This document shows, piece by piece, positions 33,882 through 63,181 of a DNA stretch of 64,000 nucleotides (position 1 is the stretch's first letter; every line of letters begins with the position of its first letter). Origin of the DNA: Tubulanus polymorphus (taxonomy: Eukaryota; Animalia; Nemertea). Under the pieces are notes generated by a model. It was not told the origin of the DNA. It ran no database searches and worked only from the letters and a program-made list of their open reading frames with translations. The translations under genes were made by a program, and so were the position numbers. Location of the stretch: contig NC_134027.1 in the NCBI RefSeq assembly GCF_964204645.1, forward strand, positions 17,260,560 to 17,324,559, read 5' to 3'.

Positions 33882-33944
33882 AGCACACCACCATCTCAAC
33901 TTCAATACCGTAATAATAGTCGGTTTATGTGCTTCATACGAATC

Positions 33945-34263
33945 AGTAATTAGAAGATGGCGTTTTCATACCAGAGGTCGAGAGGTCGAGACACCACTCA
34001 TCACAGCTAGGTTCTAGTGAGAACGGACGATTGCTCTGTGATGCACATATACAGTGAGTGCGCGTAACGACAACTGCGCGTGGATAGATAGATACAGTGA
34101 GTCGCTACCGAGAACGGTTATCAACGCGTGTGCTATAAATGTAGTACAGTGATTGCGTGTCAAGTGTGCTCGGATAAATAGATGCTGTGAGGCTTGGGTG
34201 AGAACGGTTAATAGCGTGCTTGTTATATACAAGGGGAAGTAATCCCCACTCATCACCACAAGT
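33945..34263. repeat. Left TIR of element B
   Basis: Reverse complement of 49701-50019 with about 8 mismatches by eye. Confidence 0.97.
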
Positions 34264-34724
34264 TATTTGTTTTCCTTATAAATGGGAGAGAATAAGACAG
34301 AACAAATTGATGTTAATGAAAATCAATATTATTGTCCATATTGTAAAAAATACATTGATAAATCTCAAAAATCGCGTCATGAAAAATCTTCAAATCATAT
34401 AAAAAATGTTATAGATTTTGAAACTTCAGAAAATTCCAATGAAAGAAAAGAACGATTAGAAAATATGAACGTGGATGAAATAAAATGTGAAGTTTGTAAT
34501 GAATTTATAGTAAAAAGGAATTATGATAGACATCTCGAATCACAAAAACACCATCAAAATTTGAGTAATAATGTTTTAGGAAAAGATTATTTCGATGATA
34601 AACCTCAAAAAGTAAAAAAACCAACTTCAAAAACTAAATCCATTTCAAATAAACCTTACATGGAAAATGTTAGAAATTATATTGATTCACTAGAAATAAA
34701 AGATACAATTGAAATATTAGAAAC

Positions 34725-35196
34725 TGTGAAGTCAATGTATATGTTATATGTAAAGTTATTTGTTTGTATAAAGTGTAACGGTAGTTGGTCGTTCTTTTGT
34801 TCGTTCTCTTGTCAGTATTCCAGTATTCTGTAGTATTGTGTTGTATTGTTGTTGTTGTCTGGTATTGTTATTTTCCCGCCTCAAAGTTTATTGGCATATC
34901 CGTTTCCGGGTTACTCCCGCATTTTGTGTGATATTTTTGGCACTTGGTCGTTGGAGCTCCTCGGAGTATCAGTGCTTGTCTGTGTGCTTGCTATATTGGA
35001 ATCTCCCTCAGTCGTCATGTAAGTTTTGTACAAATTTATATAAATTAATTATTGTAACTGTTTACAACATTTCCTACCCTTATAATATTTGTTTTTGTAG
35101 AAACGTGTAATATTCGTCGTTTGTTTTTGTCGTCGTAATTTGAAAATAAACGCATCAATGAGAAGTATCGACTGACTTCGTTTGTCATTTGCAACA
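34725..35196 (+). mobile_element. 472-bp solo LTR inserted in pPolB
   Basis: TGTG...CAACA, 5-bp TSD GAAAC (34720-34724 and 35197-35201); removing it restores EILETLRSKIGPAA, matching ETFKSDIGPAA in fragment A1. Confidence 0.88.
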
Positions 35197-38100
35197 GAAA
35201 CATTACGTAGTAAAATTGGTCCTGCAGCTATTATATTTAGATATTTTAAAGGTACAACAATAGAAGATTATAGTAAATTTAATGAAATAATAGAAGAAAT
35301 ACTTGTTTTGATAACAGATGTTGAATATCCAAAAATTAGTATAATAATTTCAAAAACGCAAATAAAAGAGAAGTTAGAAAAAGTATTTAATGACTTTAAA
35401 CGTCATATTGAAGAAAGATATTTTGAGGGTCCTGGTTTATCATTAAATGAAATTATATTTTTAGATTTAAATGTTTATAATACAAAAAGGAATAAAACAT
35501 CAAAAAGTAAAACAATGTTTAAAAATGATTCAAACTTTACAACAGAAAAGGATATTAAAGCATCATCAGCAGTAATAAATGTTCAAAATGAAGATAATAA
35601 ATGTTTTCTATGGTCAATTATTAGTTGCTTACATCCAACAGAAGATATAACACATAGTTTTAGAATAACAAATTACCGGAAATATGAAACATTATATGAA
35701 ATTGATCAATATCCAGTAACTATAAAAATGATACCCAAAATAGAAAAAATTAATAATTTAAAAATAAATGTATTCGAATTAATGCAATTACCAAATACAA
35801 AAGGTGAAAAAATTAAAGATTATACATTGGAAGCTTTATATTTAACAGAATATTATGATGATAAAAATGCTATAGATTTGTTATATTACAAAAAAGATGA
35901 AAATGAACATTATATGTGGTTAAAACAAATTGATTTATTCTTTAGAACAGAAAGTGATTTTGACAGTCATAAAATTTATCTATGTAGAAAATGTTTATCT
36001 AAATTTAGAACTGAGAATGCGTTACTAAAACATAAAGAATTATGTGATAATAAAGATTTTTGCAAATTGATAATGCCAACAGAAAAAGATTATAAATTGA
36101 AATTTACTAATCATAAATTTAAAAATATTGTTCCATTTGTAATTTATGGGGATTTTGAATCGGTGAATAAAGAATTAACTGATCAAGATAGAAAAGAAAT
36201 ATATAACAAAAAGCAATTATTAAAATCAATGGATAAAGGAAATTAATTAAATGAAGACACAACACACGACCCGCCAATTATAAATACAATTAAAAAAGTT
36301 CATCAAAGAGCTGCTGCTTATGGAATTTATATAAAATCAAATTATCCTGAATAATATGAAAGTCAATATATTTCTTTTAGAGGTGAAAATGTAGTTAATG
36401 ATTTTTGTGAAAAAAATGATTGAATTAGAAAGTGATTTTGCAAAATTATTAAACAAAAATAAAAGAATAGTTATGACAAAAGAAGATGAAATTGATTTTA
36501 ATTATGCAACTCATTGTAGTTATTGTGAAAAACGTTTTTATTCATTTGATAAAAAAGTTAGAGATCATGATCATTTGAATTCAAAATATCGTGGAGCTGC
36601 TCATGAAGATTGTAATTTACAAGCTAAGAAAGTTAATTTCGTACCAATATTATTTCATAATTTATCAGGCTATGATACCCATCTATTTATAAAACAATTA
36701 TCGGGAAAATAGGGCGCAATTAATCAAGAAATAGAAGAATATAATGCTATGAATGGTGTAAATGTAAGAAAATATGATTTTAAACTATTAGCTAAAACAT
36801 CTGAAAATTATATTTCATTTCAATTTGGTTGCATTAGATTTTTAGATTCTTATAGATTTCTAGCAAGTTCATTAGATAATTTATCAAAAAGTTTAGTTGA
36901 TAATGATTTTGTTATAACTCGATATTATTACCCAAATGCACAAGATTTTAAATTATTGAGATATAAATGTGTAATTCCTTATTCATTTTATAAAACACAC
37001 AATGATTTTAATGTAACAGAATTATTAAAAGATCAATTTTATGATCAATTAAAAGAGGAGTATGTGAAAGATGAAGTGTTTAATAGAACATTAAATATTT
37101 GGAACCATTTTAAGATGAAAAATCATGGTGAATTAGTTGATTTATATTTAAAATCAGATGTTATGATATTGGCTGACATATTTGAAAAATTTAGAGAAGT
37201 TAATTTAAATCATTTTAATGTTGATCCTTGTTATTGCTACTCTAGTCCTGGTTTAACCTGGCAATGTGGTTTAAAATATACTAACGTAGAATTAGATTTA
37301 TTAAAAGAACCAGACATGGTTTTATTATTTGAAAAATCAATTAGAGGTGGAATTAGTGGTGTTATGGGAGATAGATATTTTAAAGCAAATGATGAATATA
37401 AATTATTATATATTGACGCCAATAATTTATATGGTTGGGCAATGATGCAACCTCAACCATACAAAAATTTTATATTGACAGAAGTTGAAAATGATGATAA
37501 AACTGATTGGGAAAGCGCAATTGCGAGTTTAAAAGATGAAGCACCAATTGGTTATTTCTTTGTAGTTGATTTAGAATATCCTGAAAATATAAAGTTTAAA
37601 ACAAGAAACTTACCTTATTGCCCAGAACATTTAACCGTAGATGATAGTTATTTAAGTGAATACCAGAAGAAAATAAAACCGAAAGATCATGTTTTTACAG
37701 AAAAATTAATACTTACTCAAAATAATAAATACAATTATATTGTTCATTATAGAATGTTGAAATTTTATCTAAAACAAGGAATGAAATTAAAGAAAGTACA
37801 TAGATATATTGAATTTAATCAATCGAAGTGGTTAGAAAAATATATAGATTTCAATACTCAACAGAGAACCATATCAAAAACAGATTTTGAAAAAGATGTC
37901 TTCAAATTAATGAATAATAGTTTTTATGGTAAAACATGTGAAAATATTAGAAATAGAAATGATATTGAATTAGTAAATAATTCTGAAAGATTAAGACATT
38001 TACAATCAAGTCCTAGACATTTAGGAAATAAAAGATTTGAAGATTATTTAACAGCAGTTAAATTAAAAAGAACGTCAATGAAATTTAATAAACCTATATT

Positions 38101-38209
38101 CATTGGTTCAACTGTTTTAGAAGTATCAAAATTATTAATGTATGATTTTTATTATAATGTTTTACAACCACTTTTTGGGGAAAAGCATATTGAAATATTA
38201 TATTTTGAT

Positions 38210-39284
38210 TCTGTAACAGCTGACACCCCAATATTATAAAAATGTAATGATAAAATATTGATAAGAAGAATTTCAGAAATAATTCCAAAACAAAATGAAT
38301 GTTATATTTCATATGGTGAAAAAGAATTAATACAAATAAATGGATAATTGGATGTTTGGACAAGAAATGGATGGAAAAAATTAAAGAATATTATTAGGCA
38401 TAAAACAAATAAGAAAATCTATAGAGTTAGAACTAAATTAGGGTTTGTACATGTTACAGAAGATCATAGTTTAATTAAACGAAATGGCGATGAAATAAAA
38501 CCAACTGATATAAAAATTGGAGATGAATTATTACATAAAAGATTTTTCCAAAGAATGAATCATATGTCATTTGATAAAATAATTGATAATATTTATAATA
38601 TAGAACCTGAAACATTAGAAGAAAAAGAATATTTTATCAAAGGATTTTTTATGGGAGATGGTTCAGCAGGTGTGTATAAATATGTTTGGGGTAATAAATA
38701 TTGTTGGTATTTATGCAATCAAGATTTGATATTATTAGAAAGAATAAAGAAATATTGTGAAGAAGTTTATCCAAATAAAACATTTAAAATCATGGATGTT
38801 ATGAAATCATCAGCAGATTATAGAATACTTGTAAATAATCCTAAAGATTTTGCTATAAAATATAATGATGAATTCTATATTCATGCAATAGTGAAAAGTA
38901 CTTCAACTAAATACTTCAACTAAAGAAAAGATAGTTCCAGATTATGTATTAAATGCAAAAAATAATTTAAGAAAATGGTTCTTCATTGGATTCTACGCAG
39001 CAGATGGTGCTAACAAATTTACAAAGGATAAAAAGAGAACCTTTGCACAGAAAGGAAAAGTTGCTATATCAGGGTTAAATATATTATGTAATTCATTAGG
39101 CTTCAATATGAATATTGGATTGATTAAATCTAAACCAAATTGCTTTAATTTAAGCCACACAGAAAAAGATTTAACTGAAGAAGTTAAAGATTTATTTGAA
39201 ATATATAACCCAACAGATTATGTTTATGATTTATCAACTGAAGATGGTACATTTAAATGTGGATTTCCATTAATTTGCTTCAAT
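38210..39284 (+). mobile_element. Intein with LAGLIDADG homing endonuclease, inserted in pPolB motif C (degenerate)
   Basis: Block A SVTADTPIL after YFD; block B VTEDHSL; block C GFFMGDG; block E GFYAADG; block F YVYDLST; terminal Asn before TDS. Two in-frame stops and a 13-bp duplication. Confidence 0.95.
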
Positions 39285-39736
39285 ACTGACAGTTACATAC
39301 TAAAAATCAAGACAAATGACATAACAAAAGACTTAAAAACATTAAAACATCGTTTTGATTTTAGCAATTATCCCAAAGATCATGAACTATTTAGCAATGA
39401 TACTAAAAAGATTCCTGGTAAATTTAAAGATGAATTAGGGGGTGATGAAATGATTGAATTTGTTGGGATAAGAAGTAAAATGTATAGTTATAGAACAAAA
39501 GATCATGAAGCTAAAAAGTTAAAAGGAATAACAAAACATGTGGTTGATAAACATATAGAATTTCAAGATTATATAAAGTGTTTATATAAATCAATTGTAA
39601 TGAAACATAAAATGAATTGTTTAAGATCAGAAGATCACGAGATGAACATTAATGAAGTTTAAAAATCTAGTTTGAATCCATTTGATGATAAAAGGCATAT
39701 TTTAGATGATGGTATAAAAACATTACCTTATGGTTA

Positions 39737-41074
39737 TTAAAACATAAAATCAATATCATCATACTCGAAATCACTATTGGTTTCTTCATTTTCATTTAAT
39801 TGTTCTTGTATAATTTGTTTAGGTTCTTCCATTTCATTTTTCTCATTTAAATAACGTGTTATATTGTGCCACATTTCATCTCGCTCTCCTTGTTTCTTTT
39901 TGTTTGTTAATTCATCAAATGGAATTATAATATCTATGTTTAAATAATTTACAATCTTATTTAAAAAGAATTCATAATTAATTGAATCTGTTATTCTATT
40001 TTCCAAATGATACATTAATATTTGTTTGAATATTTTTTTTATATTTTCCATATCTTCTTCTGTTAATTTAGGTTTTTCATAATAATCGTTAAATAATAAA
40101 TGTAAATACATTTTCTTTTGTTTTGTCTTTTGTTTTGTGTTAAATGTTGATGGAATAATTGTTTTCATTATATCTTTTTTAGTTATTTCACCATTTTTAT
40201 TTTCTATCATTTTAATTTTTTCAAGCGATTGCATATATTCTGGTGTATGATCTTCTATAGAAAATATTTTAAAGATTTCATCTAGATAATTTAATTTTGG
40301 TTCTATGAGAAAATCTCTAGTTTTTTCATCACCCCATAAATTCTTTTGCCATCCAAATTCATTACAAAATAACACAGTACCTTCTTGTCTTAAGGTCGCA
40401 TAATTACATTGTGGGCATTTTTGTTTATAATTTATTGGTTATAGATCTTCATTAAGCTCCTGGTATTTTCTTACGTTTTCTTTATGTTTTATTTTTCTAT
40501 TATGTAGATTTAAATTACTTGTTATAATAATCAATTTACAATATTTACAATAATATGTTTTTCTTGTTAATTCATTATATTGTTTTTCTAACTTTTCAAC
40601 TGTTTCTTTATTATCTGGTAACGTTTTCTCATATTTTATTTTTTCTAATATTTAATTTTTTCTTTCATTGAATTCTGCTTCAAATTTATTATAAATTTTA
40701 TCTATATGTACTTTACGAAATTGATGATTCTCCCAAGCTTCTATATTTTCAGGGCTATATTTTATTCGACAAGGCACACAGAAATGATATTTTATATTAT
40801 CCTTATCATAGAATAAGAAAGGTCTTTTCCAAATAATTTCAGGTTCAGTTTCAACAGAATTACTATTACTTTCGTTACTATCAACATTAACCGTTGTGTC
40901 ATTAATTTTACACTTCTCTGAATGTTTTTTAACATAAGTTCTTGAGAATAATTTATTACATTTTGGGCAGTTTATTTTAGGGGTTTATAATTTTCATCAT
41001 GTTTTTTCATGTCGAGCCATATTACTTTTTCTTTGAAGTTCACCATAAATTTCGCATGGTATCTTCTCATCCAT
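39737..41074 (-). pseudogene. Zinc-finger protein with C-terminal VLTF3-like (poxvirus A2-type) late transcription factor domain
   Basis: Several C2H2 fingers, then KCPQC...FCNEFG ribbon, PKLTEEDMENIKKIFKQI, SINYEFFLNKI, ERDEMWHNI; upstream part broken by stops and frameshifts. Confidence 0.65.
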
Positions 41075-41142
41075 TTATTTAGGAAAAATTTTATTAAAAT
41101 TAATTTTTAGTGATGAGCGGTAATTTTTTTATGTTATAAATA

Positions 41143-41896
41143 ATGGTAGAATTAAAAGAATACAGAATATTTAATCTAGAAAACTTACAAATTATAAATC
41201 ACATAATTTACTAGTACAATTAGATAGAGAATTTAAGAATTGTGTAGATTAAAATTAGTAAATATAAGTTTATGTAATTCTTTTTATAATGTAACGGATA
41301 AAAGTCTAGAACATTTAATTGTTTCAATCTTTTACAAAAAAATGAATAAATGGTTTTTTATATGTTCAAAACCAGGATTATATAATTAAGATACATTAGC
41401 ACAAGAAATTAATAGAAAAGCTCGAGCTAAATTAGGAAGTGATTCCGGATTTAGTATTAGAATTTTAAAAAGTGATAGTTCTAATAAAATAAAGATTAGG
41501 TAAGCTAATGACGAACAATTTAAATTTACAGTAAGAAAACCTTTAGGTAAACTGTTAGGAATTAACCCAGATATTGTTACAGCATACGCAGAGGGTAGAT
41601 CAAACTTAATACCTTACACACACTTCTATATTTATTGTAATTTAATTGATCCTACACAAACATTTGAAGCAACTAAAGATAAAACTTGCAATTCTAGTAT
41701 ACTAAATATTTTACCATTAAAAAATGTTAAACAATTTGGAACTCAAATAAATTATAATGTTACAGAATGTGATTTTAAACCTTGCATTCCGCATTTCAAT
41801 AATTTCAAATTAGAAATAAGAAATCATAATGGTTATTTAATTGATTTGAATAACTTTCCTGTGATATATGAATTAGTTATAAGATGTAAAGAGTAA
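41143..41896 (+). pseudogene. Putative minor capsid (penton-like) protein
   Basis: NSFYNV, KPGLYN, LGKLLG, FYIYCNLID, SILNILP, LEIRNHNGYLIDL...YELVIR: pattern typical of Polinton minor capsid proteins; internal stops. Confidence 0.6.
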
Positions 41897-41913
41897 TTTT
41901 TTTCACTATATAA

Positions 41914-42273
41914 ATGAATATAACTGTTGGACCGAGTATATGTTTTGGATTTGATTTTAAACGTGAGAAAGAAATGAAATTTAACATTAATGATGTAATT
42001 ACACATATTAAAAATATTGCATTTTCTAATGAAACAACATTTGAGTATGAAAAAACAATAGATAAAGAAACTTTAAATGTAGAAAAGATTACTAATTTAA
42101 TTAGAGAATCTTTAAGATTTTATGAATTAGATGAAGATTTTATCATAGATGATATTAAAAACATATTAACCAAAATATATGATAATCATAAAAGTAGTAA
42201 TGAAATAAATGTTCAATCAATCATCACTAAGATAACTAAATATTTTGAAGATTGTAATTTTTTTGATAAATAA
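41914..42273 (+). CDS. Polinton hypothetical protein, 119 aa
   Basis: Open ORF starting in TAAATG; its stop overlaps the next TAAATG. Confidence 0.6.
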   Translation: MNITVGPSICFGFDFKREKEMKFNINDVITHIKNIAFSNETTFEYEKTIDKETLNVEKITNLIRESLRFYELDEDFIIDDIKNILTKIYDNHKSSNEINVQSIITKITKYFEDCNFFDK

Positions 42274-42495
42274 ATGAGTGATAATAAGTGGATAATAACT
42301 GGATTATATAATGGAGCATTACTATCAGTTTGAACTGTTGGTTATTCCATGGTATTAAAAAAAGTATTTAAAATGGGAAGTGTTAATGTTGATAGATTTG
42401 ATATAAATGATATCTTAAAATTAACATTAGCAGTTACTTTATCCAATTTAACTATTGATTATTTGGAAAAACAAAAATATATTCCTCCCATATAA
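42274..42495 (+). pseudogene. Small hydrophobic Polinton protein
   Basis: TAAATG start, one internal stop, ends YLEKQKYIPPI; homolog at about 58348-58507. Confidence 0.55.
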
Positions 42496-42519
42496 AAGTG
42501 TAATTATTTTACTAAATAA

Positions 42520-42942
42520 ATGGCTTCTGCAATTATAACTATTATAGGATCGGCAATTGTTAACGCTTTAGCATTTACTGGTGGTGGATATTTATTTAAG
42601 CACATTGATAAAAATGGATCATTAACAGAACAAAAAAGACATAACTTAGCATTAGAGAAATACCATAAAGCAGCAGAAGAATATTGAGTAAATAGGCAAA
42701 ACTATATGGATTATATTAACAAGGAATTATATGATCAGAAGATTTCACATAGAGATTTTCAATCAGTCGATGATGCAATGAGTTTATATAACGCGGTAAC
42801 CAATAAAGAAAAATTACATCTACATAAACCTACAATATCAGATTATTATACCCCAAGTAAAGAACAACAGAAATATGAAATAATATGGATTTTAGGTGGA
42901 ACAGTTATTGTTATATTTGTAGCATATAGATTTACTAATTAG
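42520..42942 (+). pseudogene. Small protein with hydrophobic N-terminus, coiled coil and C-terminal TM segment
   Basis: MASAIITIIGSAIVNALAFTGGGYLFK...EQKRHNLALEK; one internal stop; homolog at 58528-58950. Confidence 0.7.
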
Positions 42943-42960
42943 TAATTTTTTTCTAAATAA

Positions 42961-43395
42961 ATGGAAGATAAAGTTGATAATATTGATATCATTCCTCATG
43001 ATATAAATAAAACTAAATTAAAAACATATTTAGAAAAACAAATATTAGAATTTGAAAATGATTTAAAAGTTAAAAAGAAAAAATATTTAAAATCTAAAAT
43101 TATATATTATTTTATTATTAGTGATTCAGTTACAATTAGTTCTGTAATAACATTTCTAGCAATATTCAGTCCATTAACACCTTTAGCTATATCAATTGGC
43201 GTATTAGGATTATCATCAAGTGTATTAACCAGTATAAGTTCAAAATTAAATATAAAAAGTAATAAAGAAAAAATTAAAACTAATATAAAAGAAATTAATA
43301 AATTAAAGAATACACTAGATTATATAATAAGTTTAAATGGCCATATAACAGCTGCAGAACAAGATAAATTATTGAAAGAATTAGTTAATTATTAA
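42961..43395 (+). CDS. Coiled-coil protein with two hydrophobic segments
   Basis: Open 144-aa ORF with TAAATG start; homolog at 60697-61130. Confidence 0.75.
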   Translation: MEDKVDNIDIIPHDINKTKLKTYLEKQILEFENDLKVKKKKYLKSKIIYYFIISDSVTISSVITFLAIFSPLTPLAISIGVLGLSSSVLTSISSKLNIKSNKEKIKTNIKEINKLKNTLDYIISLNGHITAAEQDKLLKELVNY

Positions 43396-43411
43396 TATTT
43401 TAATTATATAA

Positions 43412-44677
43412 ATGGTAGATAGTTTTCCAAAAGCTTTCCAATATAATAAATCAATTAAATATAAAATTCCTGCAATAGATTTTAATAAAGATATTTCATA
43501 TAGAAATGAAGATTTGAATTCATTAATTGATTTATATATTTATGTTACTGAAAGTAATAATTTTCATGGAAAGAAGGAAAATATATTTCATGTGTATACA
43601 ATTAATTTCAAAAATTTAAATGAGGCAGAACAATGGTTATTAAAATCTAATATGAAGTATTGGCAGAACCAATTAAATTTTGCTGTTTATTGCGCAACAA
43701 CAGGATGTGGAATTAGTTGGAATGATCATTTAAACAAACCAAGTTTACCATTAATTTTATCACTTTTTAGATTTCATACGTATTTTCAAATAAAATTGAT
43801 ATTAGATGAATTAGAATGTCCTTTACCAGGTTCAAAATATTTTAAAGAATTGAATAATAATATTAATTTTTCTAAGTTTTATAAAATATGTAATGAATTT
43901 AATATTAATTCAAATAAAGATTTTAGAGCAAAAATTGGTACAATGGGTGGATTAGGAATATTATATACTAAAGAATTTGGAAAAATAATGACAAATTCAG
44001 ATGTAAGAACACTGAATTGGAATGAATTACCAAAATATTATAATAATATACAACAACAAAACAATAATGGTTGGGTTAATTTCATTTTAGATAATAGTGA
44101 AGGTTTTACTAAAGCTGGTATACAAAGAATAAATCAATCTATTAGAACTTATTTGATATGTATTCTAGGTGCACAAGTTGAAACAAGATCCCCAATAATT
44201 GGAAATGATAACACTTCATTCGATGCGCAGAAACAATTTAAAGTTTTATTTGAAGATTCCATTCATAATGATAAAAATAGATCGATTCCAGAAAACATTG
44301 TGAGATATCAAAATTATTTAGATAAATCACATATTAGATTAAATTATTGTATAGGCCCTAATCTATTAATTATTTCTAATGATTTAGTACTAAAGATGGG
44401 AAACATAATTGGTTACAATAATCTAATTAAAACTGCAACAATAAATAATTCATTTGGATTAAATGATATAAATAAAAAGATTATTACTGCTCCAAAATTA
44501 ATGGAAGGCGAAAAAAATAAAAAACATATTCAATCAACAGAAACTAAAACTAAGAATATTGAATTAAATAATGATAATGATAATAATAATACTGATAATG
44601 ATAATAAATTCCATGAAAATACTAAATTAGCTTTAACCTGTATAGGAATTGTTATAGGAGGAATATTATATTTTTAA
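43412..44677 (+). CDS. Conserved Polinton protein of unknown function with hydrophobic C-terminus
   Basis: Open 421-aa ORF; YWQNQLNFAVYCATTGCGIS and GFTKAGIQRINQSIR are conserved in the homolog at 61147-63165. Confidence 0.8.
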   Translation: MVDSFPKAFQYNKSIKYKIPAIDFNKDISYRNEDLNSLIDLYIYVTESNNFHGKKENIFHVYTINFKNLNEAEQWLLKSNMKYWQNQLNFAVYCATTGCGISWNDHLNKPSLPLILSLFRFHTYFQIKLILDELECPLPGSKYFKELNNNINFSKFYKICNEFNINSNKDFRAKIGTMGGLGILYTKEFGKIMTNSDVRTLNWNELPKYYNNIQQQNNNGWVNFILDNSEGFTKAGIQRINQSIRTYLICILGAQVETRSPIIGNDNTSFDAQKQFKVLFEDSIHNDKNRSIPENIVRYQNYLDKSHIRLNYCIGPNLLIISNDLVLKMGNIIGYNNLIKTATINNSFGLNDINKKIITAPKLMEGEKNKKHIQSTETKTKNIELNNDNDNNNTDNDNKFHENTKLALTCIGIVIGGILYF

Positions 44678-44699
44678 TTTTAATTTTTTTATTATATAA

Positions 44700-46155
44700 A
44701 TGGATGTAGAAGGTGGAGAAGATATTGGAATGGATAATTTTGATGAACCCGGCATAACTGAAGAACAACCGCCTGATTTTAGTGAAACAAGTTTTAATGA
44801 CGGTAATGAGCCAGAATATAATAATAATTTAAATATGCCTGATTATATTAAAAATGCAGAATCACAATTAAATCCTGAAAATTTAGACCCAGATTTAGTA
44901 TAACAAGATTTAGATAATTTAAACAAAATACCTAAATTAGAACGAATAATTGAAAATTCTAAACTTAACATAAATGATGAAGACGTTGGACCTTTAGCAG
45001 ATCAATTAAAATTTTTAGATAATGGTAAATGGTATTATCATTTGAAAGGTGATTATTATATTGATATCACTTATAAAAATAATAAAAATAAAATATGAAC
45101 AAAATCAACTTTGAGTGATTTAGATCCAGATAGAATTAAAAGAATTAGTAATAGTAATGTAATAACTGATGTTATAAAACAAGAATTAACTGATAATGAT
45201 ATAGACGTATTTAAATAAAGAATTAATGAATTATTTGAAATAATCAAAAAGAAATCAGAAACAGAAACAACTTCTGAACAGAATATAACTTCCTAAACTA
45301 GTAAACTTAAATCAAATAAAGTTCCAATTGAAAAACTTTTACCGAATGGATTAATTGATGCAACAGATCAAGAATTAGAAGATTTAAATAATATATTTTC
45401 TGTTGAAGCAATTAGAGAAATTAAAAGTATAAGACTTGCATCTGATAAAATTTCGCATGATAAAAGTATAAGATATTTTAAAATTAGAACTTTAGAAAAA
45501 GAATTAACTGATAAAAATAAAGAAATAGAACAATTAAAGTCTGATTTAGATCATCAAGTAATTGATGAAATAGAATATAGGCAAAAAGAATTACGTTTAG
45601 AAAAAGAAAAAGATGATTTAGAATATAACATAGAATTACAAAAAGTAGAAATAAAATTATTGTTAAAAACATATGATTATAATATTAATAGATTAAAAGT
45701 TATTTTTAAAGATTTGTTGATTAAATCAGATTCTGAAATATCATTAAAAGATAGAATAAAGTTATTATTTAAATTAGAAGGAATAACAATTCTTTCAATT
45801 CTAACAGCTGTAACTATGTTATTTACAACAATTGGTTTAGCAATATCAAATGCTTTGAAATCTACTCCTACTCCCAATAAACCGGATAAACCCCCGAATG
45901 ATAATTCAATACAAGATAAAGTTAAAGATGGTTTAAAGAAAATATTTATGGGAACTATCTAAAAAATCTGCTGCAGCTTTACCAGGAATTATTGCATCAA
46001 TTGTTGGTTTTATATTGAAATCTGCAGGAAACATTATTAACTTTGCTGCTGAACATATTATTTTATTTTTAATTACAGTTGTAAGTGCTATTATTTTTGG
46101 GTTAGTGAATATGATATCAAAAAGATATCAAGAAAAAATAATAAAAAATAAATAA
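44700..46155 (+). pseudogene. Large acidic/coiled-coil protein with hydrophobic or amphipathic C-terminal helices
   Basis: Fragments 44700-44903 and 45660-45962, continuing AAALPGIIASIVGFILKSAG...HIILFLI; many stops. Confidence 0.6.
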
Positions 46156-46175
46156 TTAATTTTTTTGTTAAATAA

Positions 46176-47423
46176 ATGATTGGGAGTTATATAAGTCCTT
46201 CTAAGATTTCTAGAATATCTAATGCTATTAAAGCAGAAAGATCACATCATATAATTACTCATAACCCTTCTAATATTAATCCTGATGAAACTTTATATGT
46301 TAGAATTCCGAGATTAACACAAAATACTTTTTATGTTCCAAATAGTATTTATTTATCAGCCGATATAAAAGTAACTGGTCATGATAATAATTATGTTGTC
46401 GATAATGTTGGGAGATATTTGATTAAAAAATTAACTATATAGATTGGTCCAGAAACAGTTTTCTCATTAGATGATTATAATTTATTTATGCATTATAAAG
46501 ATTTATGGCTAACTAAAGAAAATAGAAATAATATGATATTTCAAGGAATCCAATCAGAAAACCATAATAAATTAAGATCAGGAGCTAAGAACGCAAAAGT
46601 AACTCGTGCCACAGATAATTTGATTAAAAAGATTTATGGAAGCAAATATAAAATTCCATTAGACTTTGAATTGATAAATAATATTGCCCCTTTATATAAA
46701 TATGTATTTCAAGGAGATATTATATTTGAGATAACATTTGCTCCTGTAAATGAAATTGTAATATCTAGCGTTGTTAAAGATATGGGTTATAAATTATCGA
46801 ATATATGTTTAGAATATGATACAGTAACTGATGAAAATATTTCAAGTATAATTCAAACTCAATACAATCAAGGATTTTCATTATTATATGATTATATTGA
46901 TAAATTTAAAACTGTAACTATTAATGCAAATGGTGAAATTATTAATGAGAATATTAACTTCCCAAGAAGATCTATTAAAGGTATATTAATATTTTTTACT
47001 ATTGCAACATATTCTAATGGCGCAATAAAGGTTGATAATTATTATAATCCTGAAATAACAAAAGTAGAAATAACTATCGAAGGAATAGCAAATAAAATAT
47101 TTTGTCAAGGAATGAGAATGATAGATCAGTGGCCAGAAATTAGAAAACATTTTATGAATGAAAAAGTGAAATCATCTGAAAATTGTAATATTAATCAAAT
47201 TGATTATTATACCGGCAATAAATATGCATTATGGTTAGATTTTAGAACAACAGAGGATAATTCATTACATGGTTCTGGGAAAAAACTACAGAACACAAAA
47301 GATGGAATACAATTATTCATGGCAAAGAAAATAGGAGACAAAAATTTTAAAATGCACATTTATATTATATCTGACGCACAATTAAATATTGTAAATTCAC
47401 AATTAGATAGTATTCAATATTAG
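46176..47423 (+). pseudogene. Putative major capsid protein (double jelly-roll)
   Basis: About 415 codons with one in-frame stop at 46440; beta-rich; NPSNINPDETLYVRIP, VGRYLIKKL, YKIPLD, YKLSNICLEYD, PRRSIKGILIFF pattern of invertebrate Polinton capsids. Confidence 0.75.
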
Positions 47424-47453
47424 AAATATAAAGTTAAAATTAAGGATATATAA

Positions 47454-47685
47454 ATGGGTGGTAAAAAAACTCCTAATACTAAAGAACAATATTTAAGAAA
47501 TTTATATTACAACCCTAAGAGTTCGGTCGCTTATTCTTCTACCAAAAATTTATGGCGTCAAGTGAAACAAGATAAATAAGATAAGATAATCCCACAAAAT
47601 TTAGTTAAATATAAAGATATAAATGAATTTATGTTAGAACAACCAACATACACAACACATAAAAAAATTGTTAGAAAATATATAT
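47454..47685 (+). pseudogene. N-terminal remnant of Polinton retroviral-like integrase
   Basis: LRNLYYNPKSSVAYSSTKNLW...INEFMLEQPTYTTHKKIVRKY; no DDE core follows. Confidence 0.7.
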
Positions 47686-47689
47686 TAAA

Positions 47690-48078
47690 CTTTAAATTTA
47701 GATAATTGTATTAAAATAGCAATAGATATTTATAAAGGATCAAATACATTATTCATTATAGATGATTGCGCAAATTTACATGATTCAAAAGTGAGAGAAA
47801 GTGAGTTATGTTATCAGGCTTTCTCTGGGAGACATTTTGGGATAACAACATGGGTTTTAAATCAAAAATATAATTCGATTGTTAAAGACTTTAGAGAAAA
47901 CATTAGATTTCTAGTTTTATTCTGCAATAAAGATAGAAAATCGATGAAAAATGCACTTGAGGAAAATGATATTATTCCACATGATTTACATAATGAATAT
48001 ATGGATAAATTGAAAAATAATAAAAGATCAAAATTACTATTTAGATTACAACACCCATTTAAATATGAATTTATTTAA
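47690..48078 (+). pseudogene. C-terminal half of A32-like packaging ATPase
   Basis: Walker B LFIIDD, SGRH, WVLNQ, FREN; no Walker A upstream. Confidence 0.8.
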
Positions 48079-48079
48079 A

Positions 48080-48355
48080 TTCAACTGGTTTGTTAATCTA
48101 GTTGAATTCTAGTAACATTCTAGTTGAATTCTAGTTATTAGTAGTTGAAACAAAAATCAAATAAAATTCAACAATATTTTAACTAGCTTGTTAATCTAGT
48201 ATAATTTTAGTTACATTCTAGTTGAACTCTAGTTATTGGTAGTTGAAACAAAAATCAAATAAAATTCAACAAGAAATAAATAAAAACAACAATATTTCAA
48301 CTAGCTTGTTAATCTAGTTGAATTCTAGTTACATTCTAGTTAAATTCTAGTTGCA
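48080..48355. repeat. Three about 100-120-bp repeats rich in CTAG and GAATTC short palindromes
   Basis: CAACTAGCTTGTTAATCTAGTTGAATTCTAGTTACATTCTAGTT repeated three times. Confidence 0.85.
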
Positions 48356-48384
48356 ACATCACAACAAATTTTTTTGTTATATAA

Positions 48385-49284
48385 ATGGGAGGTGAAAAGA
48401 AAATAAAATCTAAAAATGGTGATGTTCCAATTGAAAAAACTTAACAGAAACAAAATTAACTCCAGATGATGGTGCTTTGAATAATGTTACAACAAATAAT
48501 AATTATGAATATTATCTTTATTGTAAACATCAATTAGAAATATTAATATCATCTGGAAAATGTAAAAATTTTATCGGTAAAAATTTAACTTATAATGAAT
48601 TAGATACAATGAAATCAGATGAAATTATTAGATTATTTAAGACTTATGAAACCGCGAGAACAACTAGAATTAATGACGCGATCACAGAAAATGTAGTAAA
48701 AGGTTATAGTAAATTATGTAATTATATGCTGCCAATTCAAGAGGAAAATAGATTATATGCTGATTTGAAAAATGATTATTTAGTTATGACTGAATTAAAT
48801 AAATGGATTGGATATTTATCATTTCAATTAGGTGGATTTATGACATTATTATCAACTGGACTTATGACATTTTCAAATATTGAAAGTAAAAATATTTCTA
48901 TAATAAATGAACAAGGTGGAAGAAGTGAAGAAAAACCGAGATCACAGAAACAAATTGAATGGTCTCGGCAATTAGGAATTAAATCACAAGAATATAAAAA
49001 AGCTGTAAAAGAAAAAATAAGTAATAAAAATGTTAATAAAAATGGTGAATATTGTTATTTCTACTCCTTCTAATGATAGAATATTTGATAAATGTCAATA
49101 TTTTACAGTTGGATTTGTAATTGTATTCATTTTGATTGGGTGTAATTGGTATAAGAAATCAAATAAAATTCATGATATTAATAATTCTGAAACAACTGCT
49201 ATCAAAAATGAAAATACTTCTGAAATTCCAAAATTGATAATAAAAAAATGGATTAATATTTTAGATAAAAAGCAAAAAAAATAA
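48385..49284 (+). pseudogene. Two or more Polinton hypothetical proteins, frameshifted or fused
   Basis: TAAATG starts at 48385 and 48907; ORF pieces 48477-49073 and 49030-49284, the latter with a TM-like segment. Confidence 0.5.
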
Positions 49285-49406
49285 TTGAATATCTCACTAC
49301 TTTTGTCTATCTATGCGGGGCAATTAAATTGTCCAGATAAGTCATTTCGGATTCTAGATATCCATTATTTTTAATAATTTATTTTTTTAAATTTAATCAA
49401 CAATTT

Positions 49407-49690
49407 CTAAATCATGATGGCCATCTTCATTTTTCCATGATAGATTATTTTAAATCCTTCTAAATCTTTTAATTCCTCTGTACTCAATGAAACCCATTTA
49501 TCAGGTAAAAATACTTTAAATTCTCGCGATGTACTAACATTGCAGTAGCTTAAATTAGCTGATACTTTCTCTCCATATTTTGTTTTTATCTTTTCTAATT
49601 TCAATACTTTATGTTCAATTTCTTTTGTAACATCAACTAACTTTTTTATTTCAAATAGTTTTTTTGCTGGTTTTATTCTGTTATTTGTTG
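49407..49690 (-). pseudogene. Small basic terminal protein (TKYG...FLP family)
   Basis: KIKTKYGEKV...KVFLPDKWVSLSTEELKDL aligns with NKYGDRL...YLPDRFYGLSSEDLEEL at 57225-57566. Confidence 0.6.
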
Positions 49691-49700
49691 TTAAAAAATT

Positions 49701-50019
49701 ACTTGTGGTGATGAGTGGGGATTACTTCCCCTTGTATATAACAGGCACGCTATTAACCGTTCTCACCCAAGCCTCACAGCATCTATTTATCCGAGCACAG
49801 TTGACACGCAATCACTGTACTACAGTAATAGCACACGCGTTAATAACCGTTCTCGGTAGCGACTCACTGTATCTATCTATCCACGCGCAGTTGTTGTTAC
49901 GCGCACTCACTGTATATGTGCATCACAGAGCAATCGTCTGTTCTCACTAGAGCCTAGCTGTGATGAGTGGTGTCTCGACCTCTCGACCTCTGGTATGAAA
50001 ACGCCATCTTCTAATTACT
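49701..50019. repeat. Right TIR of element B
   Basis: Reverse complement of 33945-34263. Confidence 0.97.
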
Positions 50020-50838
50020 CGAATCCTTCAATCACGATTTATGCAAACTAAGGTGAAAACCGTTTAAATCAGTTTCCGTTCTGCTTATGTATAGACACTC
50101 TCCGGACTCGATATACAGCCGCTCGGACTGATGCTAAGGGCAGTCAATTTACTCCCGACGTGTCGTTTTATCAACATAACACTATATCAATGTTCGATAA
50201 CCAAGGAATACCTGGTCGAATCAATACCGCCCGGTGGTCACACACAAAAATCGGATCAGATCACATCAGATCGATGATTTTAAGAACCTCCTCAATCCAA
50301 ACAGATTGAAATATAGACGTAGTTGATACATACGCCGACAGATGATCGGTGCGATTACCCTCGCAACACCAACGGACCCTGTTTTGACAGGACGGAAAGT
50401 ACTCTCCACACGAGACGAGGAAAGCCCGTCCCACCTTTGCAAAAATCTAACATCCATATCGGTTCTCACCACTACCCGCCACTGTAAGGCCACGAATGTG
50501 TTGATACACACGCCATCTATCTGATTAGGCTATCACTACTATTCGCAATGACTTATAATATGGAACACTCATACACCGACGTCTGTTTATAATAAAAAGA
50601 AATAACACAATGTGTACCTCACATCTCAATATGAATTACTCAGTTTTATTTCTACTGTGAATATTAAAATTATTACATTGCTACACCCTCGTGAAACTGG
50701 CTGTGTTATTATAAGTATTATAAAATGATATTAGCATCTCTTTAGGTTAATACTAAATTGACTAGGTTAGTTAAAGTTAAAGAATTTTTATTCAAAATAT
50801 AAAGTATTCTCTTTTGAAAAGAATTGTAAAAGAAAATA

Positions 50839-51563
50839 TTAAAAATTAAAATAGAAATAATAGATTGTTGAAGATATGTAATTTTTATTAAATTTTATTT
50901 GAGATAATAAAGATTCAACGTATTGTTCATTATTCGGATCATTGTTCCATTGATCAATAAATTTCTTTGCCTTTGTTAACTGTTCTAAATATAACTGTAA
51001 ATCTAGTGTATTAAATTTTATTTTATTTTCTTTCTTTTCAGGAGGTCTTAAATTTTTCCAATTCCAAATAAGTTTTTTATTGTATTCATCATTCATGTTA
51101 AATTTAGATATCGGTAACGTATGATCAATATAAAAAAAATCTCCATAATTATCTATATTCATTTGACTATCGAATTGATATATTATCCATGATTTAAGAA
51201 ATTTATCTGTACAACCCAACAAATTAGATAGTGTTTCTGAATGTGTTTCTTTGTTGAATAATTGTGTTAATCTAGTCCTTAAACATTGTTTCAATCTGAA
51301 ATTAAGATCTGTTTGATATCTTTCTATCATATATTCTGTCATATAATCATTATAAGCTTCTCTATTATCTTCTCGATATTGTTCCGTATATAGTTTAAAA
51401 CAAGTTTTACAGCAATATTGAAAACCATCTTTGCTAATCTTACGCTTACTAAATTCTGTTGTAGCTAATTTCTTGTAGTATATATTGAACACTTCTTGTA
51501 GTATATATTGATAACACCAGTGTTATTTGTAATATTGATAGTTTGTGGTTGTTCTGGTTCCAT
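50839..51563 (-). pseudogene. HNH-like endonuclease of the type common in large DNA viruses and phages, frameshifted near the N-terminus
   Basis: TEFSK...SKDG...CKTC, FRLKQCLRTRL, LLGC...LKSWI..QF...MNIDNYG..FYIDHTLPISKF...WNWKNLRP...EN; ATG at 51563 in TAAATG. Confidence 0.75.
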
Positions 51564-57224: not shown

Positions 57225-57566
57225 ATGGAGAGTAAACAAATACACAGTGAATTCTTAAATAGAATCAAAGATATTACAAATGTCAAATCTGTATATTATA
57301 AATTTAAGAAGTTAAATAAATTAACAATTCATAAGAAATATTTAATTAAAAATATTGATACAGCTTCTAATAAATATGGGGATAGATTAATAATTCACTT
57401 AGAATATGAAGGGTTAAAATGAAATAAATATAAATTCGGAACATATTTACCAGATAGATTTTATGGATTATCAAGTGAAGATTTAGAAGAATTACGTTCA
57501 GGTTTTTTCTATTTCATATATAAAGGTAAGAACGAAAAAGGGCACCATGAAATAGATTTCGAATAA
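57225..57566 (+). pseudogene. Small basic terminal protein (homolog of 49407-49690)
   Basis: One internal stop at 57420; KYG and YLP motifs. Confidence 0.6.
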
Positions 57567-57580
57567 AATATGTAAAATAA

Positions 57581-58345
57581 ATGGCAGAATTAAAAGAATA
57601 CAGAATATTTCATTTCATTATTTTGATTCAAGAAGACTTACAAATTATAAATCACATAATTTACTTGTACAATTAGATAGATAATTTGAAAAATTGCGTT
57701 GATTTAAAATTAGTAAATATAAGTATATGTAATTCGTTTTATAATGTATCGGATAAAAGTCAATTTATTCTTTGATGATTCATGTAAGGAGAAATAATAA
57801 ATGATATCATCTATTTTTAAGACCAGGATTATATAATTTAGAGACTTTAGCGCAAGAAATTAATGGAAAAGGTAAAACAAAAATGAGCGCAGCTGCTGGA
57901 TTTGGAATTAAATTTTTAAAAAGCGATAATAATAATAAATTAAGAATTAAGTTAGCTAATGAAGAACAACATAAATTTATAGTAAGAAAACCATTAGCTA
58001 AGCTGTTAGGAATTACACCAAATAAACTTTATTCAAATGTTGATTCTACACCAAATATAATGCCTTTTACACATTTTTATATTTATTGCAATTTAATTGA
58101 TCCTACAAAAACATTTGAAGCAACTAAAGATACAATTTGTAATTCTAGTATATTGAATATTTTACCATTAAAAAATTTCAAACAATTTGGAACTCAAATA
58201 AATTATAATTTAGGTGAATGTGATTTTAAACCATGCATTCTACATTCTAACAATTTTGAATTAGAAATAAGAAATCATAATGGATACTTAATTGATTTTG
58301 ACTTTCCTGTAATTTATGAATTAGTTATAAGATGTAAAGATAAAT
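57581..58345 (+). pseudogene. Putative minor capsid protein (homolog of 41143-41896)
   Basis: High similarity, e.g. THFYIYCNLIDPTKTFEATKD and LEIRNHNGYLID. Confidence 0.6.
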
Positions 58346-58954
58346 TGACTGTTGGTTATACAATGGTATTAAAAAAGTATTTAGAACGGGAAGTATTAAT
58401 GTTGATAAATTTGATATAAATGATATTTTGAAATTAACGTTAGCAGTAACTTTATCTAATTTAACAATTGATTATTTTGAAAAACAAAAATATATTCCTC
58501 CTATATAAATGCATAATTTCTAAATAAATGGCTTCTGCAATTATAACTATTATAGGATCGGCAATTTTTAACGCTTTGGCATTTACTGGTGGTGGGTATT
58601 TGTTTAAGCATATTGATAAAAATAGTTCATTAGGAGAACAAAGAAGACATAATTTAGCATTAGAGAAATACAATAAAGCCGCAGAAGAATATAGAGAAAA
58701 GAGACAAAACTATATGGATTACATTAACAAAGAATTATATAATCAGAAAATTACACATAGAGATTTTCAATCAGTCGATGATGCAATGAGTTTTTAGAAC
58801 GCAGTAACAAATAAAGAAAAATTACATTTACGTAAACCTTAATTATCAGATTATTATACACCAAGTAGTGAACAACAAAAATATGAAATAATTTGGATTG
58901 TAGATGGAACAGTTATTGTATTATTTCTTGCTTATAAATTGACAAATTAGTAAT

Positions 58955-60674
58955 AATAATAATAATAATCTTATTTATATACCGCTTTACACTGCGTTTC
59001 AAGGCGGTTTACAATAATGAATACATTAAGATAATAATATAGTTTTAATAAAACATTAGTTATCATAATACTGAGTAAAAAGAAATGTTTTAAGATTGGC
59101 TTTAAAATAATTAATATCATCACTAGTACGTAAGGTTAAAGGTAGATTATTCCATAAAACAGGGGCAGCGCAAGCAAAAGCTCGATTACCGTAAAAAATT
59201 GTATTGCATGACACATGAGACAGTTTAAACATATTAGCTGACCTTAATGAACGATTCGGTTTGTACAGAGACACTAACTTGCTAAGGTAAGGAGGTGCTA
59301 GACCATGAATACATTTAAAAACCAAAAGTAAAACTTTGAATTGTATACGTTTACAAACAGGTAACCAATGTAAGCTAAATAAAACAGGGGTGATATGGTC
59401 ATATTTAGAACCTTGAGTAATTAACCTAGCTGCTGAATTTTGGATGGTTTGAAGTTTTGACATTTGATAATCTGTAATTCCAAGTAATAAACTGTTACAA
59501 TAATCTAGTCTTGACGGGATAAAACAATGATCACGCTTTTCAGTAGTGGCTGTATCGAGTAATGATCGAATTTTACTAATTCTGTATAATGCAAGTGATG
59601 CCACTTTACAGATATGTTTAATATGATTATCCATTGTCATGAAGCTATCAAAATAAAATACAAGGTTGCGTACTGTTGAAGAGAGAAATATTGTGGAATC
59701 ACCTACACATAATCCATTAAAAACATTATTCACTTTTCTGAATTTGGATGAGAATAAAATAACTTCAGTTTTTGAATCATTTAGAAATAAGAGATGATCT
59801 CTCATCCAAACACGTATATCCACGACACATTTTTCAATTATTGGTACAGCAGTATTTGGTTCCCTGCAGACCATGTATAACTGTGAGTCATCTGCAAACA
59901 ACATGTAATCCAAATTGTGCTTCTCTATTACGTCGGCAAGTGGAGCGGTGTAAAGGGTGAACAAGAGGGGACCTAAAACTGATCCCTGAGGGACGCCACA
60001 TAACAAATCTGATAAGTTTCCAACTTTTCCACTTAAAATACACTGTTGTTTGCGATCACTAAGGTAGGATTTGAACCAATTAAGTGCTACACCACTTACC
60101 CCAAAACGATGTTCTAATGTATGAATCAGAATAGAGTGGTCAATAGTGTCAAATGCAGAACTTAAATCCAACAGAACTAAAATAGTGTGATTACCCTTAT
60201 CTACAGATTGAAGAATATCATTAGAAACCCAAAGCAAGGCAGTTTCAGTACTGTAACATGCCCTGTAGGCAGACTGAAATTTTGTATAAAGGTCATACTT
60301 TGACAAATGATCATTAACCTGTTCAAAAACAAATTTTTCCAGTAGTTTGGCAGCAAAAGGTAAGTTTGACACAGGTCTATAGTTATTTAGAATATCAGGA
60401 TCAAGGTTAGGCTTTTTTATAAGAGGCCTAACTTAAGCATGCTTATATTCACTAGGTACTTCTCCAGTTATTAGAGAAAAATTTATAATTTTAGTGAGTG
60501 CAGGCGCCACATCATCCGTACACTTTTTAAGAATTGAAATGGGTATTTGGTCCAACTCACACTGTTTATTAGGCGCATTCAAAATTTTCTTTTTCACATC
60601 ATCAACTGAGACCTCGGAGAAACTGGAAAAACTATGGTCACATGGTTTTTCAGGTGGTAATGGTTGGGGATTAA
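58955..60674 (-). mobile_element. 5'-truncated L2-clade LINE inserted in Polinton A4
   Basis: RT motifs NYRPVSNLP, LDLSSAFD, GVPQGS, FADD and L2-type LHWLPV...FK; (TAA)n tail; TSD TAGTAAT at 58948-58954 and 60675-60681, a site that is single in element B (about 42940). Confidence 0.92.
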
Positions 60675-61146
60675 TAGTAATTTCTTTTCTAAATAAATGG
60701 ATGATAAAGTTGATAATATTGATATTATTCCTCATGATATAAATGAAACTAAATTGAAAATATATTTAGAAAAACAAATATTAGAATTAGAAAGTGACTT
60801 AAAGATAAAAAAGAAAAAATATTTGAAATCTAAAATTATATATTATTTTATTATTAGTGGTTCAGTTAAACAAGTTCTGTAATAACATTTTTAGCAATAT
60901 TCTCACCATTAACTCCTTTAGCTATATCAATTGGTGTGTTAGGGTTAAGTTCAAGTTTTTTAACTGGTATAAGTTCAAAATTAAATATAAAAAGTAACAA
61001 AGAAAAAACAAAATCTAATATAAAAGAAATTTATAAATTAAAAAATACACTCGATTATATTATAAGTTTAAATGGTAATATAACAATTGAAGAACAGGAT
61101 AAACTATTAAAAGAATTAATTAATTATTAATTTGTCAATTATATAA

Positions 61147-63165: not shown

Positions 63166-63181
63166 ATTTTTTATTATATAA

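Follow-up and report, generated by a model that had tools for sequence, protein, structure and literature searches.

Poxvirus-type start cassettes in a Polinton of the nemertean Tubulanus polymorphus and a possible pox-like helper virus

How do the Polintons of animals express their genes, and are they autonomous viruses, satellites or transposons? No virion of an animal Polinton has been seen so far (10.64898/2026.06.19.733378), and the question is raised anew by a decayed Polinton of Tubulanus polymorphus that occupies positions 33945–50019 (~16 kb, 24.8% GC, 75% AT) of a 64,000-nt stretch of its genome (NCBI RefSeq assembly GCF_964204645.1, contig NC_134027.1, positions 17,260,560 to 17,324,559 of the forward strand; hereafter the window, from whose first letter our coordinates are counted). 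Nearly all genes of this element begin with one short cassette, a T-tract followed by TAAATG. An earlier sequence-only reading took the cassette for a poxvirus late promoter and proposed that the element is a virophage-like hyperparasite transcribed in the factory of a cytoplasmic large DNA virus. Judged from the sequence comparisons below, the element is probably an integrating satellite of a pox-like helper virus whose promoters it mimics.

The start cassette of the window element

The element is a Maverick/Polinton and falls outside the virophage family. It is flanked by a 6-bp target-site duplication (CGAATC, at 33939–33944 and 50020–50025) and ends in terminal inverted repeats, the left of which (33945–34271, plus strand, 327 nt) is 97% alike to the right arm with which it pairs (49693–50019, minus strand). 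It encodes a protein-primed DNA polymerase B (34282–39740, plus strand; PF03175, E 7e-17) and an A32 packaging ATPase (PF04665), which is whole in sister copies. The rve integrase, of which the window copy keeps only a remnant, is recognized in a sister copy (PF00665, E 3e-10). Two double jelly-roll capsid proteins are tentatively assigned, the major one by a weak match to PF16903 (E 0.013) and the minor one by position and size only. No cysteine maturation protease, a trait of Maverick/Polinton group 1, appeared among 18 open reading frames (ORFs) scanned from sister copies, and none of the genes scanned in the element encodes an RNA polymerase. Such a protease is a core gene of the virophages (Lavidaviridae).

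All 18 TAAATG sites listed by the sequence-only reading are present on the strands and at the positions it gave. Twelve lie in the main element and those at 57581–63182 in a second Polinton; the site at 51563 belongs to a separate HNH-like fragment. That nearly every gene starts in this way is borne out for the main element, in which TAAATG stands at 12 of the 13 surviving gene starts; two more genes (the ATPase and the right-end gene) have lost their starts in the window copy. The start that had been missed is that of the putative minor capsid gene at 41143, which reads TAAATAATG. Thus a TAAAT initiator overlaps the start codon exactly in 12 of 13 cases and lies within 3 nt of it in all 13. 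The T-tract said to precede many starts is equally real, with at least five T among the seven positions −16 to −10 in 11 of 13 starts; it is absent from the integrase gene and a 122-aa gene. The spacer between T-tract and TAAAT is 6 bp, and the T-rich core lies 5–7 bp upstream as in poxvirus late promoters. As for the short intergenic gaps, most do measure 16–30 bp, but one gene pair abuts, one overlaps and one is separated by a ~300-bp repeat.

Since the element is so rich in A and T, the background matters. Inside it, TAA precedes 37 of 368 ATGs on the plus strand and 14 of 250 on the minus strand (51 of 618 in total), and among window ATGs with an AT-matched upstream sequence (≥83% AT) it precedes 50 of 339 (15%). 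The 12 of 13 gene starts are thus enriched over the AT-matched background with a binomial p of 1e-9. Internal ATGs, which had been put forward as a further control, are unusable for in-frame Met codons because a TAA before them would be a stop codon. ORF calling, moreover, prefers an ATG that directly follows a stop, and therefore starts were also set by protein homology (below).

Vaccinia virus late promoters consist of a T-rich core, a 5–7-bp spacer and TAAAT (PMC5294985); the T of TAAAT is usually that of the ATG, and a 5′ poly(A) leader arises by slippage at this site (PMC4542343). The motif, already recognized in the sequence-only reading, and its spacing agree with these accounts, and the T-rich core, spacer and initiator overlapping the ATG are shared with poxvirus late/intermediate promoters. 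Unlike poxviruses, the element carries the cassette on all genes, including those for polymerase and integrase, and has no RNA polymerase among its scanned genes. Inside its genes, TTTTTNT (given in the earlier reading as the poxvirus early terminator) occurs 10 times on the coding strand against 21 expected; A-runs are also fewer (88 against 118), so that this avoidance is confounded by a general avoidance of runs; it is counted among the points against a pox-like helper.

Two genes had been cited in support of a viral helper. The first, for a zinc-finger and VLTF3-like late transcription factor (39737–41074, minus strand, TAAATG start, broken in the window copy), is confirmed by PF04947 scores above cut-off in sister copies (25–30 bits) and by a fold match to poxvirus VLTF3; hmmscan, run on the window fragment and on three whole copies, gave no PF04947 match. 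A full HMMER search of 1.84 billion proteins found five with the VLTF3-like domain, and a word-based search found none; the nearest full homologue in that set is a 226-aa protein with an A2L zinc ribbon. Cowpox VLTF3 ranks first among the fold matches of the predicted model (E 9e-7); it is followed by an unnamed protein, then by two entomopoxvirus VLTF3s and only after these by other giant viruses. Twelve matches reach E ≤ 0.001, and identities are only 14–24%. As modeled, the protein thus appears closest in fold to poxvirus VLTF3. VLTF3 has already been reported in some polintoviruses (PMC11131425). The second gene feature is an intein with a LAGLIDADG-like domain (38210–39284, plus strand, broken in the window copy), which lies within the YFD/TDS motif of the polymerase. 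It had been called NCLDV-type (of nucleocytoplasmic large DNA viruses), and it is indeed related to giant-virus polymerase inteins, but its named relative is a mimivirus and not a poxvirus. Its best matches are in other protein-primed polymerases, followed by RNA-primed family-B polymerases. Homing-endonuclease insertions have been reported in Polinton polymerases (PMC11161782).

Conservation of the cassette among relatives

The host genome (268 Mb) contains at least 151 chromosomal matches to the VLTF3-like domain, a lower bound with 150 of 563 candidates scored. Most copies are decayed, and the less-decayed ones show ~16 genes. One of the latter has TAAATG at 14 of 15 starts, TAAAT at the ATG or a little upstream of it in 15 of 15, and T at −16 to −10 with a 6-bp spacer. 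Both inverted repeats drive a gene from the same type of cassette, and two gene junctions abut exactly in sister copies. The host's own histone genes, whose H3 sequences are of animal type, have TAA at none of seven starts and a purine at −3 in all seven (distinct starts, after three duplicates and a spurious H1 entry were removed).

An alignment of the capsid protein brought in metagenomic loci, of which the best 80 of 180 (29–76% identity) were compared. Starts were fixed by conserved N-terminal protein motifs; only starts at which such a protein motif was found were counted, and near-identical contigs were included. TAA precedes such homology-defined ATGs in 22 of 24 cases in subclade A, which holds the window family, and in all six of subclade B, compared with 0 of 14 in sister subclade C, 0 of 15 in other AT-rich Polintons and 0 of 69 in other GC-rich ones. 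With near-duplicates removed, subclades A and B together have TAA at 27 of 29 starts. The starts of Polintons outside A and B have a purine at −3 in 93 of 98 cases, the position at which TAAATG starts have T. In the capsid tree (a quick version, built from capsid ORFs of at least 250 aa with AT-rich rows flagged for composition), A, B and C form one group with a Shimodaira–Hasegawa-like approximate likelihood ratio (SH-aLRT) of 100; the branching order among the three is left open.

Within subclades A and B, the cassette persists through much change. The relatives range from 20 to 44% GC overall, and it is kept at 40–44% GC; it is also kept despite altered gene order, strand and inversions, and with capsid proteins 33–76% identical to those of the window family. 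At six loci, back-to-back genes have only 14–30 nt between their start codons and carry TAAATG both ways, and at two loci head-to-head genes with overlapping 5′ ends have it in both directions. First genes and divergent genes carry TAAATG without any upstream stop, and TAAAT is retained where it is uncoupled from the ATG frame (TAAATAATG, TAAATATG).

Several minor observations were made on these loci. At their starts, the AT-rich outgroup Polintons (L076–L078, L082, L118 and L120) often have runs similar to TATAAAAATG or TAGAAATG. A TCTA motif like that of Cafeteria roenbergensis virus (CroV) was considered for the outgroup Polintons and rejected (10 against 4.9 in one group, z 2.2). Two metagenomic subclade A Polintons with TAAATG carry a deoxynucleoside kinase gene (L059:10343–10981 and L063:2898–3380). 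Scans of a viral contig collection returned no relatives of the element.

Candidate readers of the cassette

If the element is a satellite, each ~25-bp T-tract/TAAATG cassette would serve as a late promoter of the poxvirus type, and a pox-like helper would transcribe from it with its own RNA polymerase, late in infection and only in the cells that the helper infects. Transcription would begin in the AAA and slip, and the resulting 5′ poly(A) leader would turn the unfavorable T at −3 into A. The element's own VLTF3 might steer the helper's late machinery or compete for it, and the copies in the germline would be the work of the integrase. This reading is favored by the restriction of the cassette to two subclades, the pox-like VLTF3, the lack of a visible RNA polymerase gene and the NCLDV-like cassette of a sister family, to which we now turn.

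The host genome has four copies of a subclade C Polinton family (C1:20158824, C7:11502381, C1:16683627 and C8:3992097) with 49% GC, capsids 71–75% identical to that of locus L071, and a VLTF3-like gene of its own (a weaker match); a DIRS-like reverse transcriptase ORF adjoins each copy. None of 14 starts in this family has TAAATG, and in 10 of 14 a TATAG lies no more than 20 nt away, in most cases behind a T-tract (one of 15 rows, a retrotransposon ORF, was removed). In African swine fever virus (ASFV), transcription of late genes begins at TATA and gives short leaders (PMC7163114), and as a sequence signature the T-tract and TATAG of the subclade C family resemble the ASFV late initiator.

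The sequence-only reading had suggested a search of the host for endogenous NCLDV fragments. A search for RNA polymerase genes did reveal an endogenous virus (C8 ~4,523,900–4,638,000; ~115 kb, ~50% GC, intron-free). It has long inverted repeats with an RPB2 in each, and it encodes RPB1, RPB2, an A32 ATPase, a family-B polymerase, a poly(A) polymerase-like protein, a YqaJ nuclease and helicases, including an origin-binding one; most of its genes have no Pfam match, and family searches (including that for the NCLDV capsid) identified neither a capsid nor a capping enzyme. Its RPB1 and RPB2 best match PDB entries 8Q3B, 8XX4 and 8Y0E, identifiers that occur in papers on the ASFV RNA polymerase. 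Nine of the 78 starts of this virus have a T-tract followed by TATAG, where 2.1 would be expected (p ≤ 0.003), and TATAG had been noted in L071 before this virus came into view. Further gene-dense endogenous large DNA viruses of ~40% GC lie at C3 ~16.03–16.11 Mb, C2:18146430 and C23:40001–110000; they have intron-free family-B polymerases of ~2200 aa, a tyrosine recombinase and galaxin-like repeats, with no RNA polymerase match. Besides the ~115-kb virus, two endogenous large DNA viruses have no TAAATG starts among the inspected ORFs of at least 130 aa.

A number of results weigh against a pox-like helper, and they concern the helper itself, the two supporting genes and the element's copy number. 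Searches of the host genome for Pox_Rif, three pox RNA polymerase subunit families and the NCLDV capsid family, run with no positive control, gave no match, and RPB1/RPB2 searches gave only three intron-split loci and the one endogenous virus. The ~115-kb virus has TAAATG at 0 of 78 starts and TAAAT within 40 nt at 12 against 7.2 expected (p 0.054, not significant), and is therefore not the helper of the window family. The TATAG signal came out of a trial of six patterns and accounts for only 12% of the virus's genes. The pox ranking of the VLTF3 fold may be tilted because the alignment included one pox-sized homologue (226 aa). VLTF3 is present in Polintons that lack TAAATG (L118, over the Pfam cut-off, and the subclade C host family), and was not seen in several related copies and contigs that have it. 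It also belongs to the core genes of viruses that have no RNA polymerase and are presumed nuclear (PMC11253617), and thus does not alone imply a cytoplasmic site. The intein's only named relative among the 120 matches listed is the mimivirus polymerase (39%), and one related copy has no intein. Finally, an element able to act without a helper would more readily account for the chromosomal copies, of which there are at least 151. Overall, the earlier interpretation is supported in part, by motif, spacing, VLTF3 and intein kinship; a helper with TAAATG promoters and replication in a cytoplasmic factory are still its predictions.

Because VLTF3 is kept by viruses without an RNA polymerase, the main rival is an autonomous nuclear virus whose own VLTF3, with its zinc ribbon and a modeled cyclin/TFIIB-like fold (matched with a Z of only 6–7), would guide host RNA polymerase II to the cassettes with no helper. 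Mriyaviruses, which have VLTF3 as a core gene without RNA polymerase, set the precedent (PMC11253617), and the high copy number and the failure to find a pox-like helper fit as well. We nevertheless consider it unlikely: TAAATG also heads the genes for VLTF3 and the polymerase, which would leave the cascade without a starter; the motif is kept where VLTF3 is not seen; and 14–30-nt two-way spacers and T at −3 poorly suit polymerase II. A partner of another kind, an element like the yeast linear plasmids pGKL1/2 with an RNA polymerase of its own, did not appear in the RPB1/RPB2 searches of the host genome.

The cassettes might instead be relics, dating from an ancestral satellite of a pox-like virus and of little use to present copies, which would persist or spread as transposons. 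The lack of any helper trace in the host genome and the decay of most copies would agree with this. Conservation of the motif over diverged capsids, gene orders and GC contents suggests continuing selection in many lineages, and we regard a relic as quite improbable. A packing or translation signal is very improbable, be it TAA-ATG stop/start coupling or a poly(A) signal of the upstream gene (AATAAA or TATAAA) that overlaps the next start. Two junctions do abut exactly in sister copies and many starts contain AATAAA or TATAAA, but most gaps are 16–30 bp, first, divergent and head-to-head overlapping genes have the motif without an upstream stop, one subclade has CTAAATG, GTAAATG or TTAAATG with no AATAAA, and equally compact relatives are without the motif. 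Avoidance of AATAAA or of splice donors did not separate the groups of relatives. The homology-defined counts, GC range and two-way spacers argue against such coupling and also rule out that the motif is a chance product of AT-rich DNA or simply the usual start context of the host. For all that the element is 75% AT and has TAAATG commonly inside it, this last reading is refuted by the enrichment at its starts, the AT-rich relatives, the histone genes and the motif's presence at 40–44% GC.

The satellite reading can be set beside known systems. Mavirus shares the late motif of CroV, which switches on mavirus genes (10.1101/068312), and different types of endogenous mavirus-like elements (EMALEs) bear different motifs that are thought to match different helpers (PMC8547959). 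Like our element, these provirophages of Cafeteria are integrating elements with protein-primed polymerase B and rve integrase whose genes share one motif, and types in one host differ in motif and GC; they differ in having a protist host, a Mimiviridae helper, a TCTA motif and proven helper dependence, whereas here the host is an animal, the motif is pox-type and the helper is unseen. Maverick/Polintons (Polintoviricetes, “adintoviruses”; PMC8502044; group 2, 10.64898/2026.06.19.733378) have the same inverted repeats, 6-bp duplication, polymerase, integrase, ATPase, 16–17-kb length and, putatively, capsid genes, and what sets our element apart from them is the uniform pox-type start cassette and the lack of a cysteine protease among its scanned genes. 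Elements related to Maverick group 2 occur in entomopoxvirus occlusion bodies (PMC11296320); these Polinton-like viruses are linked to animal poxviruses, and some have no integrase. The main text of that paper does not contain the words “promoter”, “motif” or “transcription”, and “promoter” is also absent from the main texts of PMC8502044, PMC11131425 and 10.64898/2026.06.19.733378. In pGKL1/2, a TAAAN initiator gives 5′ poly(A) leaders (PMC6211774); these, too, are elements with protein-primed polymerase B, but they have their own RNA polymerase and neither capsid nor integrase. Gene exchange is on record as well, egoviruses having donated a gene to Trichomonas polintons (10.1101/2024.03.23.586382). 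The literature that we searched, with subscription papers and supplements outside its scope, held no report of poxvirus-type promoters in animal Polintons; one virophage paper does contain TAAATG, once. On the satellite reading, promoter mimicry by an integrating satellite, a known kind of system, would extend to Polintons of the animal germline and to pox-type promoters, with the helper unseen.

More tentatively, a branch of animal Polintons may consist of integrated satellites of Pokkesviricetes in which the start cassette names the helper, TAAATG a poxvirus-like and TATAG an asfarvirus-like one, with a possible animal counterpart of the provirophage defence known from protists. If so, the helper of a Polinton could be read off its sequence, unknown pox-like viruses would be predicted in invertebrate hosts, and virophage-like hyperparasitism, possibly as an inherited antiviral defence, would reach high-copy elements of the animal germline. 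The T. polymorphus genome would then hold both kinds of satellite along with a ~115-kb endogenous relative of one of the helpers.

Gene content of the element and its neighborhood

The genes of the window copy are described from left to right and are on the plus strand unless noted. The polymerase gene, whose T-tract lies in the inner end of the left inverted repeat, starts with TAAATG and is disrupted by stops, frameshifts and a ~480-bp insertion (one contig skips 34724–35206). Beyond the VLTF3-like gene lie the putative minor capsid gene (41143–41896, broken) and four small genes with TAAATG starts: a 119-aa ORF (41914–42273), a 73-aa gene that directly abuts the preceding stop (42274–42495), a 140-aa gene (42520–42942; it and the 73-aa gene are conserved among relatives) and a 144-aa two-helix membrane-type gene with a weak SLATT match (42961–43395). 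The next, also with TAAATG, is a conserved core gene of ~460 aa (43412–44677), which is present as an ORF of at least 300 aa in 25 of 80 related loci and has many invariant residues. Its predicted fold is partly confident (predicted local distance difference test, pLDDT, 74) and has no match in viral or PDB structure libraries, and thus no hidden transcription enzyme is demonstrated there.

The right half contains a conserved gene of ~480–520 aa with a hydrophobic C-terminus (44700–46155, broken) and the gene for the inferred major capsid protein (46176–47423), which has 925 homologues and a single internal stop; both start with TAAATG. At 47454–48078 an internal deletion has removed the middle and left the 5′ remnant of the integrase gene, with its TAAATG start, next to the 3′ remnant of the ATPase gene. 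From there to the next gene run three ~100-nt tandem repeats (48080–48390), the element's only long intergenic stretch. A conserved gene of ~200 aa (48385–49073) and a broken one of ~120 aa that starts within it (48907–49284) again have TAAATG. The last gene (49407–49692, minus strand, 108 aa) is driven from the right inverted repeat; its start, lost in the window copy, is TAAATG in sister copies.

Outside the element, the HNH-like endonuclease gene (50839–51563, minus strand, TAAATG start) is a fragment of a related subfamily. The second, related Polinton (57225–64000, plus strand) is interrupted by a long interspersed nuclear element (LINE) and has TAAATG at 57581, 58528, 60697, 61147 and 63182, with TAAAATG at its first gene; in its subfamily a VLTF3 gene was not seen beside the capsid block. 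At 51–1059 the window has an inverted fragment of a related polymerase gene, 72–86% alike to 35193–36111. Two short elements at 1704–2112 and 6473–6594, with inverted ends that begin AGTAATAGGG, are possibly miniatures derived from Polintons.

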